From sequence record PQ295795: a DNA stretch of 44,712 bases. The stretch is one strand, 5' to 3'. Shown here piece after piece: positions 18,590 to 44,712 of the stretch; position 1 is the first letter of the stretch, and each line of letters opens with the position of its first letter. Source of the stretch: Escherichia phage vB_Eco_Lzu_P1. Made by a program: the position numbers and the translations under genes. The notes beneath the pieces are model-generated. The model was not told where the DNA came from and did not search any database. It was given only the letters and a program-made list of their open reading frames with translations.

Positions 18590-18620
18590 AAAAGGGGCCG
18601 TATGGCCCCTTTTCTCATTT
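18588..18620. terminator. Bidirectional intrinsic terminator between convergent blocks
   Basis: AAAAAA-GGGGCC-gtat-GGCCCC-TTTTCTCATTT; A-tract on one side, T-tract on the other. Confidence 0.65.
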
Positions 18621-20438
18621 CTCCGCTAACTTACTTTCTAACGCCTCAACCTTCGCCGCCAAATGCTGAACAGTCGCGATTAGATCAAGTAGTAGGACGT
18701 TTTCATCTAATGCCAGAAACTCTTTACCGGTTGCGTTGGTGTACTTGCGGACATACTGCGGGTCGATCTCTTCCAACTGCTGCGCGATAAAACCACGTCT
18801 AACCGTCTCTTTTTTGTCGTAGTTATAAACAAAGGACGAGTACTCCATAGTCATAACGTTATCGTACGCAACTTGAGTATCGATCCGGGCGATATCATGC
18901 TTCAGCGCCCTATCGGATACCGGGGACTTTGCGAAAATATAGTTAACAGTCCCTAAGTTGTTGCCGAAGGTGATATCGTATGCTTCGGGGTTGAATGTAG
19001 TGTTTCGAACGCTATCGCCGTTAGGCTGTGTACCGGACGCCAAATCATAATCAAAGACCTGCGCAATCATAGCATGGGGGTGCGAGTTACCGGAGGGCGG
19101 GTGGATCAGCGCGCCGAACGAAATAAAGTTACGCCACCCGCCACCACTCGTCCCCGCCCCGCCTCCAACAAAGCCGACGTGTCCCGAGTATTGGCTGTCC
19201 ATCCATGTATTCGCAAGGGTTACGTAGGTATTACCTGGCGACGCCGAGGTGGACGATGGATTCAGTCCTTTGTTGAAAATAATCTTGCCATCATATTTAA
19301 AGTCCCACGACGGCGAGGTACTTGGATCGAGGGCGTTAACGGTTGCCAAACTGGTCCAGGCGTCTACGTTATTACGGCCCTGAAGCTGAATCGACATTCT
19401 GTATTTTTCGACCCCGGCGACGTTCATAGAGGAGTCAATTCGACCGCCGTATACTTCTGCGCCATTCGCCGGGTCTGACGCGTAATTATTGCGTAAGCCC
19501 CAAAGCCCCACGTCGTCAAGACCGCGCCACACCCACCCTTTAGTCGCAGCGTCCAGGGGGTTTACGGGGTCCGCACCTACGCGAAGCGGTCCGGGCGGCA
19601 TAAGGTTAGCCCACGACGCGCCTTTGTCCGCAAGCCCCGCGAGGTTGCCGGATTTTGTTAGCAGATTGTCGGGGTTTACGCTTTGCGCCCATTCTTCGGC
19701 CTGATCGCGAAATCCCTGCGCGGCAGTGCTGGCGGCTTGCGCTTCAGCCTTCGCGGCGTTGGCCTCGTCGCGAATAGCGCCGGTGTCAGTCTTGATCTGG
19801 TTAGTCTGGTTTTTGATCGCCTGCGTATCAGCCTTAATCTGATCAGTCTGCGTTTTTATGGTATTAGTTGCGTCGCGAATGCCTGCCGTCTCTGCCTTAA
19901 TCTGATTGGTGGCGTCGCGAATGCCAGCCGTCTCAGTCTTGAAGCCTTCGGCCTCATTGCGAAATCCTTGCGCTGCTGCTTCAGATGCCGCGGCTTGTTG
20001 TTGCAGGTTGCGCATTTCAACGGGGTCAACTTGCTTCATCAATTGCGACAGGTAGCCCCAAGACATACCCTGCATAACTTGCCCGTTCGGCAGCGTTACC
20101 GTGATTTCTTCTTCGTCTCCGAAGATCGCACGCCAGTTGTTTTCGTCCGCGAGCATCAAGCGCAACGCTTTCTGTGCCTGTACTGTTACGCCCATCGTTG
20201 CCAGCGACATGGTGTCGCGCTTAACGCCATCCCACGCAAGGCCTGCTGCCGTTGGGCCGTCGAACGGCAGCACCAGCGTAAGCGCGGTGTCGCTTTCGAC
20301 TGACGCGATAGCAACAGTGTATGGGACTTGCCCCACTACCAGCGATAAGAAGTCGCCAGCTGTAAACGAGGTAAACGTCGTGCCTACCCCGACAACCGCC
20401 TTGCTGTTATTCGTTACGGATAGTGTACCCGCTGCCAT
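18615..20438 (-). CDS. Tail fibre with repetitive coiled-coil shaft and C-terminal intramolecular chaperone (peptidase S74-like) domain
   Basis: Start at second ATG (GAGGA RBS); shaft repeats TAGIRDATNQIK...; C-terminal SDRALKHDI ... FIAQQLEEIDPQYV resembles auto-cleaving chaperone domains of endosialidase/T5 L-shaped fibre. Confidence 0.65.
   Translation of the reverse strand: MAAGTLSVTNNSKAVVGVGTTFTSFTAGDFLSLVVGQVPYTVAIASVESDTALTLVLPFDGPTAAGLAWDGVKRDTMSLATMGVTVQAQKALRLMLADENNWRAIFGDEEEITVTLPNGQVMQGMSWGYLSQLMKQVDPVEMRNLQQQAAASEAAAQGFRNEAEGFKTETAGIRDATNQIKAETAGIRDATNTIKTQTDQIKADTQAIKNQTNQIKTDTGAIRDEANAAKAEAQAASTAAQGFRDQAEEWAQSVNPDNLLTKSGNLAGLADKGASWANLMPPGPLRVGADPVNPLDAATKGWVWRGLDDVGLWGLRNNYASDPANGAEVYGGRIDSSMNVAGVEKYRMSIQLQGRNNVDAWTSLATVNALDPSTSPSWDFKYDGKIIFNKGLNPSSTSASPGNTYVTLANTWMDSQYSGHVGFVGGGAGTSGGGWRNFISFGALIHPPSGNSHPHAMIAQVFDYDLASGTQPNGDSVRNTTFNPEAYDITFGNNLGTVNYIFAKSPVSDRALKHDIARIDTQVAYDNVMTMEYSSFVYNYDKKETVRRGFIAQQLEEIDPQYVRKYTNATGKEFLALDENVLLLDLIATVQHLAAKVEALESKLAEK
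19750..19960 (-). repeat. Internal tandem repeats in the tail-fibre shaft
   Basis: Repeated gcgtcgcgaatgcc...gtctc...ttaatctg units encoding about 11-residue repeats (ETAGIRDATNQIK / QTDQIKADTQAIK). Confidence 0.6.
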
Positions 20439-20459
20439 AGCTGAATCCTCATAAATTGG

Positions 20460-20487
20460 TTGCATTAATGGTCGAGCGGTGTAATAC
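20460..20487 (+). promoter_or_regulatory. Sigma70-like promoter for the plus-strand lipoprotein cassette
   Basis: TTGCAT - 16 nt - TAATAC; ATTGGTTGCA motif at 20455-20464. Confidence 0.4.
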
Positions 20488-20519
20488 TAAAACTCAACCA
20501 AATATAGGAAATGATACCA

Positions 20520-20743
20520 TGAAAACTTTAATTATGATTTGTGCGGTTATGTTGTCCGGCTGTGCTGTAGAACGCAACAACGGCGATTGCATTACTATGG
20601 CTTACGGTAGCTGCATGTTGCGCTACGTTGACGGGCAAAAAGTGCCCTCCGGGGATGTGGACTTGCGATTCACTGGGCTGTCTGCCGATAGTGACGGCAA
20701 TTTTTCCGGCACTGTTTCAGTTAAATCACGGGAGTGGAAGTAA
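20520..20743 (+). CDS. Small lipoprotein (74 aa), candidate receptor-blocking superinfection-exclusion protein
   Basis: Signal peptide with lipobox MKTLIMICAVMLSG-C; AGGAAA RBS; size and position near receptor-binding genes recall T5 Llp / T1 Cor-type lipoproteins. Confidence 0.55.
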
Positions 20744-21708
20744 TGGGCGCTGGGATACTTATCGACTACAACGACGGAAGGCCGCGCATGGAGATAACCG
20801 CAGGACTTCGCGCGCCGTCATTCTGTACCTCATTCTATCAGCGCTGCCAGTCTGATAAGACGCTTACTATTAACACTCAGCTAACGCCAGGGTCAGATCT
20901 GGTCGTCGCGCTCACAAGCCCCGTTGAAGTTATAGAAGTATTCGACCAGACACTGGTCTTGCCCGACCCTTTCTACGTCACCTCAGTACAACGTAACGGG
21001 GATGGCGGAATCACCTTGCGAGGTGAAGACGCATATGGCGCATATAGCGGGCTTCCAACATGGGGCGGGGTGATCATGGAAGTGTTGCCGGTTGGTTCGC
21101 GCAACGCAGGGTTACTGGTGGCGAACTCGACGGACTTCACCGCCATATCAAATGTATCCAGGCTAATGACCTGCCAATATGCGCAGCGCGTGTGGGTGAA
21201 CGGAAGTATGCCGTTACCTGTAGGCGGTGTCCCATTCGCGCGCTGGGACGACGGAAACGTGTCGGTCGGCTTCGATGGCGGAAGTATTATCGTCCGTAAT
21301 GCGTCCTATGGCGGGATTGACGACGTAGGCGCTGCCGTTGAAATGGACCTGGTTATATTCAACAATACGCCACCCACCCCTGGAAACGGCATCACCATGA
21401 CAAACAACCAGGGTCAGGTCACGTTCTCAACAGTGAATAAGCCATTTGTTTATGACCGCCTTATCTATATCGGCGGCGGCGATCAGTACATAGGCAATAG
21501 CCTGGTCCAGCTTTCGTATACCGGCGCGCTCATTGAGAACAACGGCGGCTACAATCACGTTCGAATGAACGGGATTCGAATGGCAGGCGGTAATGTGCGC
21601 ATCGCCAAAAACCGGGTAATCGGCAACTATTCACGGCAGCAATTCCAAATGCCGGGTAAAAATATTGCAGTACCCACCCCGTTACTCGTAATTCCTAACA
21701 TCTATTAA
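20743..21708 (+). CDS. Glycine-rich beta-type protein (321 aa), function unknown; co-transcribed with the lipoprotein
   Basis: ORF track 20734..21708; ATG at 20743 overlaps lipoprotein stop (TAATG); opposite orientation to surrounding tail genes. Confidence 0.5.
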   Translation: MGAGILIDYNDGRPRMEITAGLRAPSFCTSFYQRCQSDKTLTINTQLTPGSDLVVALTSPVEVIEVFDQTLVLPDPFYVTSVQRNGDGGITLRGEDAYGAYSGLPTWGGVIMEVLPVGSRNAGLLVANSTDFTAISNVSRLMTCQYAQRVWVNGSMPLPVGGVPFARWDDGNVSVGFDGGSIIVRNASYGGIDDVGAAVEMDLVIFNNTPPTPGNGITMTNNQGQVTFSTVNKPFVYDRLIYIGGGDQYIGNSLVQLSYTGALIENNGGYNHVRMNGIRMAGGNVRIAKNRVIGNYSRQQFQMPGKNIAVPTPLLVIPNIY

Positions 21709-21736
21709 AAAGGGGCCGGATGGCCCCTTCTCCTTT
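21707..21736. terminator. Bidirectional intrinsic terminator
   Basis: AAAAA-GGGGCC-ggat-GGCCCC-TTCTCCTTT; same stem as terminators at 18594, 31675 and 37365. Confidence 0.6.
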
Positions 21737-24700
21737 ACCACGTCCCCACTTTCACCCTACCCCCGCCCGGTAATGGCACGTTAATGCCGGTGGCGTCGAT
21801 CTGTACCGACCCTCCAGAGAATCCGAAGTTACCAGTAGTAGCGAACAAGTTGCCTCGTACCGTTACGTTGTTGAACTCCGCCCCGCCGTCCTTCTGGATG
21901 CGCCAGCCGCTGTGACCCGGATTCCAGTTATTCGACTGCAGCGTGTCCGTGATCTGCGCGAAGTTGATAGACGCGTTCTTGATGCGTGCGGTGTCAATGT
22001 ACACCTGACCGCCGTCAACGATAAACGCGGACGAAAGCGACCCATTAGATGGGTGCATGATGTAGAACTGGTCCGCCTTGAACGCGATGCGGGATTTAAC
22101 CGCGCCACCTTCCGCAACAACTGAAAGCTGCATACCGGCATCGTAGTAAGCCCCGTTATACGTCACGCCAGCCTTAAGGCTATATGTGGCGCTGCCACCA
22201 GCATGGTTAAACGAAGACGTCATCTTCTGCTCGATAGCGGCAGACTGCTGACCGAACTGTGCCGCGACCTGGGTCTTGTACTCCGCCAGTGCGCCAGCTA
22301 CGTCTGCCGTTGCCGTTTGTACCTGCCGGATGGCGGCTTCCTGCTCCCCAAACTTAGCGGCGACAGTTTGTTGGTACTGGGCGAACGCTTGTTCGTGCGT
22401 GCTTTGCGCTGTCTGCAACGTGTGGATTGACGCCTCCGCATCATCAAGTCGTGTGCCGATCAACGTTTCCAGTTGCGCTACTGCCTTGTGGGCGTCCGTG
22501 GCAACGTTATACGCCACCTTGATTTCCGCATAAATACCCTTGTACTCGGCGCGGGCGTTGAACAATTGCTGCGCGTCGGTGAGCATCGCCTCGTAAATAC
22601 CCTGCGGGATCGTGTCGATTGCTTCCTGGAAGCGTTTACCATCCTCGGAAGTCAAGAACTCGTCATCAAGCCCCTTCATGTACTCGTCAACTTTGTCACT
22701 CACCTGCCCTTCAAACGGGGCCGACCAGTCCGACAGGTTGCCGATTTTATCCGCTACACGGGCGCGCAACTGCTGGTAAATTCCGAACTCCAGCGACGTT
22801 TGCGCGTACTCCGCGCCAGGATACGGGACGTTTGTTAAGAACTTCCATTCCGTTTCGCCCGTCTTGCGGACTTCAAGCTCGGTGTAAGAAATATCCGTCG
22901 CGGCGTTGTTGTGGTTCCACTTCCATAGAATTTGATGCAGACCCGAAATCGCGCTGGTGATGATTGGTGCGTTAAGCCCACCGAGGCGACCTTCCACCGG
23001 CGTGATGGCGGACGACACCCACGGGGATGAAATCTCGCCCATACCGATCGCACGGACGCGCGCCTGATAGTTTCCGGAGAACACGTTAGGAATGTGCGCG
23101 CCGTTCGATGCCGTGCGCGGGATATTCACCCAGTCGTTACCCCACTGGACCGCCATATTCTGCAGGCTTGTACGCCGCCACTGGATTTCATACACCACGG
23201 CATCCTTCACCGGCGGGAAAACAATATCCACGTTGGTGATTAGCTGGCCTTGCGATGAGATCTGCGACGGGGTAATGGTAACGGATTCTGGCCCCGTCAT
23301 TACACCGTCTGGCACTTGCGTGAAGATGCCAGGATCAAGGCGAGCGCCATTATCAACGGCGTCATATTTGCTATCGTTGTATTCAATCCCGCGCACCGAG
23401 AAAGTGCTCGTAGAGTCGTCATACTCCAGATCGGTGATGCGGAATTTTTGCAACTGGATATCATCGCCATCAACGCAAAACGGTTGGTCTGGAATCGGGT
23501 CGTCATCCAGTGCGGTTTTTAGCGTGACCTTGTTGCCGTTGACGCTGGCGATCTCGCGAGTCTCCACATTTCCGCTATCGGTGCGCACCAGGAACTTATC
23601 ACCAGGGCGGAATGTGATTTCGCTGTCTGTGTTAAGCACGGTACGCGTGCCAGGGTCTGACAACAGGCGACCGCCGCGAGTCTCGAATCCGCCAGAAATA
23701 TTAGTATCCGCGATCGCGACTACGCTACCAGGAATAAAGAATAGCCCCTCCATGCCAACCTTAAAGCTGACCTGCTGGTCCAACTGGTTGGAGATTAGCG
23801 CCCAGTGTCCGCGGCGTTGCGCTTCAGATTCGCGCGTACAGCCGATCGCCGTTATATCCAGACGGTTAATCTTATGGCGGCGCACCAGTTCGACGCGCTG
23901 GCCCGTTGCGATAGCGTCATCATAGTGGTTTTTCGGGTTGCCGTATGCTACCGCGAAAGTGGAGTACCGCGTTTTCTGGCTGCCAGATGCGTAGTCGAAT
24001 CGACCATCAATAACCGAGGCGTTGGTGATAGTGTGCGACACTGCTGCGACCGGTTGGTCACTGACGATATTCAACATTTGGTTTCCCCACCAGGTCATCC
24101 CGGCGAAGATGGCAGCTAAATCCTTAAGCACGGTCCAGGCGTCTGTCTGCGACTGGATGTACATATCATTCTTAAATCTGATTTCCCGTCCGCCGTTGCC
24201 GTCGCTGACCAACTGATCGCAGCGCTGCGCGATCTGGTAGAGCGCGTACCGGTTCAGCATTTGCGGTTTGATACGCCGACCGAGGCCGAAGCGCTCAGTA
24301 ATACAAATATCGTACCAGTGCCACGCAGGGTTATCTGTCCATGCGCGTTTAAACGTGCCGTCCCAGTCCCCGGAATAGGTATGATTGATCGGGTCGTAGT
24401 TGTTCGGTATTAGAACTTTGCGACCTTTGCACTTGATGGACACGCGCGGGATGTTCTGGAACGCTTTAGCGTCGAACTCCACGAACAACAGCGCGGTTAG
24501 CGGATAGCGCAGGCGGGCGTCAATAATCTCAGTGATGGATTGCACCTGGATATCATTAACCACTTTCGCCGATGTGGAGTCTGCCGTTATGCGGTGCACC
24601 TCCACGCGCCAGCCGGTGTTAACGTTCGGAGGTAATTCGATGCGGTGGTCGCGCTCATACAGCGACATTGTTTTACCAACGGCGGCGAAAGTAAACTCAC

Positions 24701-25181
24701 GCGGGTCCGCGTTATCCGTATACACAACGATCTTATAGTCGATGCGCCCGCCCACCAGGTCGCCATTATCTTCGTTTGTGTACAGGGCCGGAATGCCGAT
24801 GCGAATGCGCACGGCGTCCAAACTGGTGTCGTTAATCTGGCGCACCCACGGCGTGCCGTTTTCCAGTTTTACGCCGACAGATTGCTCACTTTCCACCGCT
24901 GAAAATCCGTGGATCACATCCTGGTGCTGTGTTCCGGGGCGGAACTCCACACGCGCGCCTGGGAAGTTTTCAGACAGGTCTGCATTCTGGATCGGTGTTC
25001 CGTCCAGATATACGCGCCGCCGTAATTCGTTAGGGTCTGGAATACCTTCGAACTCACCTTCTCCCAGCGCAAGCAAGATGCGGATTTTAGCCAGCGAATG
25101 CAGGCTATCGGGTGTCTCCTGTGGGGTGTGCTGTTTGCCACCGCCGCCTTTATGGCCTGTGACGTCATAGACAATCGTCAT
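21735..25181 (-). CDS. Central tail fibre / tip attachment protein (lambda J-like host-specificity protein)
   Basis: 1148 aa, last gene of an M-L-K-I-J order; conserved J-type segment LRYPLTALLFVEFDAKAFQNIPRVS...NPAWHWYDICITERFGLG. Confidence 0.8.
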   Translation of the reverse strand: MTIVYDVTGHKGGGGKQHTPQETPDSLHSLAKIRILLALGEGEFEGIPDPNELRRRVYLDGTPIQNADLSENFPGARVEFRPGTQHQDVIHGFSAVESEQSVGVKLENGTPWVRQINDTSLDAVRIRIGIPALYTNEDNGDLVGGRIDYKIVVYTDNADPREFTFAAVGKTMSLYERDHRIELPPNVNTGWRVEVHRITADSTSAKVVNDIQVQSITEIIDARLRYPLTALLFVEFDAKAFQNIPRVSIKCKGRKVLIPNNYDPINHTYSGDWDGTFKRAWTDNPAWHWYDICITERFGLGRRIKPQMLNRYALYQIAQRCDQLVSDGNGGREIRFKNDMYIQSQTDAWTVLKDLAAIFAGMTWWGNQMLNIVSDQPVAAVSHTITNASVIDGRFDYASGSQKTRYSTFAVAYGNPKNHYDDAIATGQRVELVRRHKINRLDITAIGCTRESEAQRRGHWALISNQLDQQVSFKVGMEGLFFIPGSVVAIADTNISGGFETRGGRLLSDPGTRTVLNTDSEITFRPGDKFLVRTDSGNVETREIASVNGNKVTLKTALDDDPIPDQPFCVDGDDIQLQKFRITDLEYDDSTSTFSVRGIEYNDSKYDAVDNGARLDPGIFTQVPDGVMTGPESVTITPSQISSQGQLITNVDIVFPPVKDAVVYEIQWRRTSLQNMAVQWGNDWVNIPRTASNGAHIPNVFSGNYQARVRAIGMGEISSPWVSSAITPVEGRLGGLNAPIITSAISGLHQILWKWNHNNAATDISYTELEVRKTGETEWKFLTNVPYPGAEYAQTSLEFGIYQQLRARVADKIGNLSDWSAPFEGQVSDKVDEYMKGLDDEFLTSEDGKRFQEAIDTIPQGIYEAMLTDAQQLFNARAEYKGIYAEIKVAYNVATDAHKAVAQLETLIGTRLDDAEASIHTLQTAQSTHEQAFAQYQQTVAAKFGEQEAAIRQVQTATADVAGALAEYKTQVAAQFGQQSAAIEQKMTSSFNHAGGSATYSLKAGVTYNGAYYDAGMQLSVVAEGGAVKSRIAFKADQFYIMHPSNGSLSSAFIVDGGQVYIDTARIKNASINFAQITDTLQSNNWNPGHSGWRIQKDGGAEFNNVTVRGNLFATTGNFGFSGGSVQIDATGINVPLPGGGRVKVGTW

Positions 25182-44547: not shown

Positions 44548-44712
44548 GTTTTACCCCATTCAAAACAGCATTACGCAGTGTGCGCAATGCAAACAGCCAG
44601 ATTAACGCGGTCCAGGTGGTATCAGATACGTCTCCTGTTTGCAACAGTCCGATAATACAGACCATTGCCGTTAACAGATACAGCACCCGGCCGAAAATGC
44701 CATCCCGGACGG
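44534..44712 (-). CDS. Small holin/antiholin-like membrane protein, C-terminal part (5' end beyond window; same gene as 1..194)
   Basis: Continuation of the ORF starting at 194 through the repeated end; stop TGA at 44534-44536 overlaps the endolysin start by 14 nt. Confidence 0.5.
   Translation of the reverse strand, partial: VRDGIFGRVLYLLTAMVCIIGLLQTGDVSDTTWTALIWLFALRTLRNAVLNGVKHAIQ
44586..44712. repeat. Terminal overlap, copy 2 (identical to 1..127)
   Basis: Direct reading. Confidence 0.9.

Follow-up and report, generated by a model that had tools for sequence, protein, structure and literature searches.

A predicted LptD-type host-recognition module inverted between the tail genes of a Dhillonvirus genome

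Introduction

A locus type in which the gene of a receptor-binding protein (RBP) is paired with that of a lipoprotein was described in 2021 in Drexlerviridae, Dhillonvirus, Nonagvirus and Seuratvirus phages, including an LptD allele and phage Oekolampad (Bas18) (PMC8594841). It was found as a general rule, whatever the receptor type, that the RBP gene comes with that of a lipoprotein specific to the receptor, and the RBPs of these phages, attached non-covalently, were placed on the J protein (PMC8594841). Dhillonviruses use FhuA, BtuB, LamB or LptD as receptor and the locus is exchanged horizontally (PMC8594841; second BASEL paper). A 2026 preprint confirms a single protein family, delimited by >30% identity and >99% coverage, for every receptor class; LptD-specific features are also found in the J C-terminus (2026 preprint). 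LptD was predicted from the same locus to be the target of Bas83-85 (second BASEL paper; 2026 preprint).

The LptD dependence of Oekolampad rests on resistant lptD mutants (PMC8594841), and with LptD mutated in EL4, EL5 or EL11 neither infection nor in vitro binding takes place. The structural report (Dunbar et al., PNAS 2025, PMC12685063) describes cryo-EM structures of the Oekolampad RBP on open Shigella flexneri LptDE (9RPT, 9RPW, 9RQI), in which the RBP inserts into the extracellular mouth of LptDE through an interface of ~1,700 Å2 and contacts EL3-5 and EL11; RBP Gln299 is named there as the hydrogen-bond partner of LptD Ser350. A superinfection-exclusion lipoprotein encoded by phage Rtp, Rtp45, was solved in the same study in complex with LptDE(M), bound from the periplasmic side (9RPS). 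Rtp45, which carries a Cys30-Cys38 disulfide, binds periplasmic LptD between LptE and LptM and its hairpin in the barrel lumen displaces EL4 by up to 20 Å, giving an LptD conformation sterically incompatible with RBP binding (PMC12685063). Expression of the Oekolampad lipoprotein (SEOeko) failed, Rtp45 is the only lipoprotein solved and its exclusion role is presented on structural grounds (PMC12685063).

A comparable arrangement is found in T5, which likewise has a monomeric RBP, pb5 (oad), at the tip of its central fibre and a small lipoprotein gene, llp, next to it. T5 Llp, described as early-expressed, and Cor of T1 and phi80 are also periplasmic outer-membrane lipoproteins with an intramolecular disulfide that inactivate the receptor. 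The receptor of T5 and T1 is FhuA, a TonB-dependent transporter, and Llp, working from the periplasmic side, inactivates it by reverse allostery. A lipoprotein of the Rtp45 type instead physically displaces EL4 through the LptD lumen.

Results and Discussion

Organization of the locus

The window analysed here is a stretch of 44,712 nucleotides. Nucleotide comparison of the 1.4-kb stretch around the genes studied matched 145 phage records, the best of them from Dhillonvirus (99.9% identity to Escherichia phage HK1), and identifies the window as a Dhillonvirus genome. Its first and last 127 bases (1-127 and 44586-44712) are identical, which is typical of the overlap of a circular assembly at k=127 and probably does not represent true terminal repeats; the window is thus probably a complete genome of ~44.6 kb. 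Scans for tRNA genes and for Rfam families over the whole window were both empty. The features relevant to the locus are the following:

18615-20438, - strand: lateral tail-fibre gene, 607 aa, outside the module (PHROG tail fibre; C-terminal Peptidase_S74 chaperone domain)
20460-20488, + strand: candidate sigma-70 promoter (read from the sequence; conservation)
20506-20509, + strand: AGGA resembling a Shine-Dalgarno sequence, 9 nt ahead of the ATG of the lipoprotein gene (read from the sequence; GGGG at this position of the alignment in Oekolampad)
20519-20743, + strand: predicted superinfection-exclusion lipoprotein gene, 74 aa (PF24052, Oekolampad and Rtp45 matches, lipobox)
20743-21708, + strand: RBP gene, 321 aa, DUF6453, its product a predicted binder of LptD on the extracellular side (PDB, Pfam and Oekolampad matches)
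21710-21729, no strand assigned: GC-rich hairpin (AAGGGGCC-GGAU-GGCCCCUU) between the convergent RBP and gpJ stops (folding)
21735-25181, - strand: gpJ-like central tail-fibre/tail-tip gene, 1148 aa (Pfam FNIII-A_GpJ, Phage-tail_3, Phage_Tail_Tip)

A first-pass annotation, made from the sequence alone, had reported a 74-aa lipoprotein with an LSG-C lipobox and a 321-aa ORF inverted relative to the tail genes, and both exist as it described them. The two genes lie on the + strand between the gpJ-like and lateral tail-fibre genes, which are both on the - strand. The lipoprotein gene (ATG at 20519, TAA at 20741-20743) stands immediately upstream of the RBP gene (ATG at 20743, TAA at 21706-21708), whose start shares one base with the lipoprotein stop (TAATG). 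Through this one-base overlap the two genes are translationally coupled. The stops of the convergent RBP and gpJ genes are separated by 26 nt. The two ORFs do not arise by chance, since the stretch is kept in 145 phage records and both products match curated Pfam families far above the cut-off. No NCBIfam model matched either protein.

Oekolampad belongs to the same genus and has the same locus with the same gene order and orientation; its RBP and lipoprotein genes are 2 nt apart, whereas those of the window overlap by 1 nt. Phage Rtp belongs to a different phage family, Drexlerviridae, and also has the lipoprotein gene followed by the RBP gene with a 1-nt overlap, convergent with J, as in the window. 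Pfam places its proteins Rtp44 and Rtp45 in the families of the window products (PF20051/DUF6453 and PF24052), with identities of only 33% for the RBP and about 35-40% for the lipoprotein.

The 321-aa protein

The first-pass annotation found no obvious analogue for the 321-aa protein and proposed to search for homologues. Such an analogue does exist: residues 1-321 match chain C of 9RPT, 9RPW and 9RQI among the PDB sequences (2e-188), the solved and biochemically characterised RBP of Oekolampad. Alignment with that protein (bas18_0025) gives 283 identical residues out of 321 (88%) without gaps, and the alternative suggestion of the first-pass annotation, that the partner of the lipoprotein could be a receptor-binding factor, is borne out by this similarity. 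The protein also matches Pfam PF20051 (DUF6453) at 1.2e-120 (cut-off 25 bits) and is 33% identical to Rtp44 over its full length, within the published limits (>30% identity, >99% coverage) of a family whose membership follows LptD specificity. Judged by these matches it is an RBP of the LptD-targeting family PF20051/DUF6453, the same role as that of T5 pb5, encoded next to llp. Its fold is taken as the same as that of the solved Oekolampad chain because of the 88% ungapped identity.

The 38 substitutions relative to the Oekolampad RBP are scattered across residues 27-320, while Gln299 is kept and residues 288-319 are invariant. LptD binding by the 321-aa protein, and with it the use of LptD as receptor by the window phage, would follow by homology at 88% identity in spite of these substitutions. 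The glycine-rich character attributed to the protein by the first-pass annotation corresponds to an enrichment that is only moderate (12.5% Gly).

Several RefSeq records carry the name “membrane protein” and the label of PHROG 1265 reads “membrane protein, moron/host takeover”. Read literally, these labels would make the 321-aa protein a non-structural factor at work inside infected cells and not part of the virion. They are automatic annotations. No signal peptide was detected in the protein, its N-terminus (MGAGILIDYNDGRPR) being not signal-like, nor any hydrophobic segment (maximum 19-residue Kyte-Doolittle average of 1.27), and the 88%-identical orthologue is soluble and attaches to LptDE on its extracellular side (PMC12685063). 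The label was rejected on these grounds, and a moron of this kind has a negligible probability. Detection of the 321-aa protein in virions, which the first-pass annotation had treated as counter-evidence to its own proposal, is exactly what the RBP reading predicts.

The lipoprotein

The 74-aa precursor has a predicted signal peptide of 14 residues (MKTLIMICAVMLSG, followed by CA) with Lys2, a hydrophobic core and the lipobox L-S-G-C15, leaving a mature part of 60 aa. The residue at position +2 is Ala and therefore not Asp, the pattern for sorting to the outer membrane; both features come from a pattern check. The protein matches Pfam PF24052 (Phage_lipoprotein) at 1.2e-21 (76.9 bits, cut-off 27 bits), a model to which Rtp45 itself matches at 1.3e-37, and retrieved Rtp45 (9rps_D, 8.5e-9) from the PDB sequences. 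It is identical to Oekolampad SEOeko (bas18_0026) at 68 of 73 positions (93%), without indels, and has one C-terminal Lys more. Identity to Rtp45 is about 35-40%: the lipobox is shared, the lipidated Cys15 is invariant in the alignment and so are Cys24 and Cys32, which align with the Cys30/Cys38 disulfide pair of Rtp45, while the C-terminal part of Rtp45 differs in length and sequence. These matches assign the lipoprotein to the Rtp45-type superinfection-exclusion family PF24052. The receptor-blocking role guessed in the first-pass annotation thus agrees with its membership in the family of the structurally characterised Rtp45 (9RPS), and periplasmic binding of LptD with blocking of the receptor is predicted by homology.

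The first-pass annotation had drawn its comparison with T5 Llp and T1 Cor. This holds as a functional analogy, but Pfam, PHROG and PDB searches detected no sequence relationship to either protein, and the predicted receptor is LptD and not FhuA. No Llp chain was found among the PDB matches of the lipoprotein up to E=10, nor any match to Cor or Llp families in Pfam up to E=0.1. The PHROG Cor family did match (8.9e-4), over residues 1-30 only, that is, the signal peptide. Membership in the Llp/Cor families was rejected since the similarity is confined to that segment. The allostery on a TonB-type receptor that the comparison with Llp implies does not carry over either: the published blocking is steric, by displacement of EL4 through the barrel lumen (PMC12685063).

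Expression signals

The candidate promoter of the cassette has a −35 TTGCAT (20460-20465), a spacer of 17 nt and an extended −10 (TGT-AATACT, 20480-20488, with AATACT at 20483-20488). Oekolampad and HK1 carry this element, TGTAATACT, without any change, and Rtp has a similar one, TGTACTATT, at the corresponding place. A consensus promoter scan did not call it, and promoter-like sites were no commoner in the scan than in shuffled sequences, so that the assignment draws on conservation. A promoter of its own, as claimed in the first-pass annotation, is plausible for the cassette, with 20460-20488 as the candidate, kept in two relatives and in part in Rtp, though it escapes the consensus scan. 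With the tail-fibre start revised as described below, the divergent intergenic region is reduced to 80 bp (20439-20518).

The hairpin at 21710-21729 was missed by a simple terminator scan. Its folding energy is -15.7 kcal/mol for the + strand (z-score -2.4) and -19.3 kcal/mol for the - strand (z-score -3.0). It is likely the shared intrinsic terminator of the RBP and gpJ genes. The first-pass annotation had named it a bidirectional terminator. It does fold on both strands, but a good U-run follows only on the - strand, in the gpJ transcript; the one on the + strand is weak (tail UCUCCUUU) and termination there is weakly supported. The lipoprotein and RBP genes are probably transcribed as a single unit, antisense to the tail operon, that ends at the hairpin shared with gpJ.

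The neighbouring tail genes

The gpJ-like protein is 95.9% identical to Oekolampad J, and a tail assembly protein is 97.6% identical to its Oekolampad counterpart. Within J the identity to Oekolampad falls from 98-100% in the middle of the protein to 85-86% in the last ~200 residues. When compared to Rtp J the last ~48 aa are instead the segment best kept (48%, against 34% overall). The gpJ-like protein is presumed, by homology, to be the platform on which the RBP docks.

The longest ORF of the lateral tail fibre starts at 20465. Its start codon is most likely 20438 (M10), however, because the upstream ATG is not kept in Oekolampad, where it is a TTG followed by an in-frame TAA, because the downstream ATG is preceded by GAGGA, and because the annotated proteins of HK1 (607 aa) and Oekolampad (606 aa) use the downstream start. 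The fibre is only 47.5% identical overall to that of Oekolampad, its N-terminus being kept and its C-terminus divergent; the window phage therefore probably uses a primary (glycan) receptor other than that of Oekolampad. It has a mosaic structure: its first 100 aa are 93% identical and its C-terminal two-thirds 16-34% identical to the Oekolampad fibre. Set against the 88-96% identity of J, RBP and lipoprotein, this suggests that the primary glycan receptor module was exchanged independently of the LptD module.

The lateral fibre gene lies downstream of the inverted cassette. To transcribe it, the polymerase must either read through the gpJ hairpin, antisense across the cassette, or start from a promoter belonging to the fibre gene itself. 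The sole promoter-like site on the - strand (CGGACA-16-CATAAT, 20531-20558) is found inside the signal-peptide codons of the lipoprotein gene. Its −10 is kept in Oekolampad, but this cannot be separated from coding constraint.

Proposed function and alternative explanations

We assign a probability of about 0.93 to the reading that a small siphophage of the genus Dhillonvirus has in this cassette its host-recognition module of the LptD type (“bona fide RBP locus”). By homology with the described systems, the 321-aa RBP would cap the gpJ-like central tail fibre as a monomer and insert into the extracellular mouth of open LptDE, contacting LptD loops EL3-5 and EL11. This binding is expected to commit the phage to irreversible adsorption and to trigger DNA ejection. 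The 74-aa protein would be exported, lipidated at Cys15 and sorted, as its +2 Ala indicates, to the inner leaflet of the outer membrane, where it is predicted to bind periplasmic LptD between LptE and LptM. A hairpin reaching up the barrel lumen would then displace EL4 and lock LptD in a shape incompatible with the RBP, and as a result infected cells and the debris left after lysis would no longer adsorb the window phage or other LptD-dependent phages. The timing of expression would likewise follow that of the homologous systems.

The most substantial competitor to this reading, though an unlikely one, concerns the lipoprotein, which could bind LptDE with a main role other than exclusion: modulation of LPS export or of envelope integrity in the infected cell, protection of the progeny only at lysis, or service as an accessory of the RBP. 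It gains from the fact that SEOeko was never expressed or assayed and that the exclusion role of Rtp45 is presented on structural grounds (PMC12685063), and from the translational coupling to a virion protein, which suggests late co-expression, unlike that of the early T5 Llp. Steric incompatibility of Rtp45-bound LptD with RBP binding (same source) argues the other way, as does the generality of the pairing between RBP and receptor-specific lipoprotein (PMC8594841), and shielding of the progeny from debris is already part of the accepted exclusion function. Recognition of another receptor by the module, for instance FhuA as in the case of T5 Llp and T1 Cor, with the similarity to Oekolampad then not predictive, is very improbable. 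Dhillonvirus receptors do vary among FhuA, BtuB, LamB and LptD with horizontal exchange of the locus, and the weak PHROG Cor match (8.9e-4) could be taken in the same sense, but the latter covers only residues 1-30, the signal peptide, Llp and Cor are absent from the PDB and Pfam results, and the receptor classes are unrelated protein families of which the RBP of the window belongs to the LptD one, at 88% identity to a solved member.

Two further ideas extend the module reading and were given little credence. The 38 RBP substitutions and the co-varying changes at the J C-terminus could define an allele adapted to another variant or conformational state of LptD. Apart from this, LPS export in the infected cell could be changed by the lipoprotein that enters the LptD lumen, a host takeover function in addition to exclusion. 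Nothing specific in the sequence points to the altered-LptD allele or to the effect on LPS export.

Relation to described modules and wider distribution

The cassette is a further, nearly identical member of a module already described genetically, biochemically and structurally. The novelty suggested by the first-pass annotation is lost accordingly, the locus type having been described in 2021 (PMC8594841) and solved in 2025 (PMC12685063), and the credit belongs to these two studies. What is gained is annotation: genes listed as “hypothetical”, “membrane protein” or “lipoprotein” can be named as encoding an LptD-specific RBP and its cognate superinfection-exclusion lipoprotein, and the terminal receptor of the window phage becomes predictable as LptD. 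More broadly, the module type draws its importance from LptD, which is essential and a target of drugs and of phage steering. At the cassette, the nucleotide identity of the closely related Dhillonviruses Bas83-85 to the window is 87-92%.

Homologues of both module proteins are also encoded, at separate loci, by phiEco32-like podoviruses (Kuravirus/Gordonclarkvirinae). In phiEco32 (NC_010324), gp21 is a DUF6453 protein (Pfam, 1.2e-23) that matches 9rpt_C (2e-9) and is 25% identical to residues 111-298 of the window RBP; its gene is located between tail-fibre and ejection-protein genes. The PF24052 lipoprotein of this phage, gp106 (2.4e-36), is found among small genes of the early region. These similarities hint that phiEco32-like podophages may engage LptD and block it. 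Our literature search listed no study linking LptD directly to these phages; the second BASEL paper, the only one listed that contains both terms, deals with LptD and with these phages apart from each other.

Database records that carry this E. coli-type LptD module include some assigned to Acinetobacter or Campylobacter phages. For example, OQ221563.1 (“Acinetobacter phage NJ01”) has 85% nucleotide identity to the cassette and MG065671.1 (“Campylobacter phage A120”) encodes a 61%-identical RBP. Such host labels look doubtful, the records representing either contaminating coliphages or phages with mis-assigned hosts.
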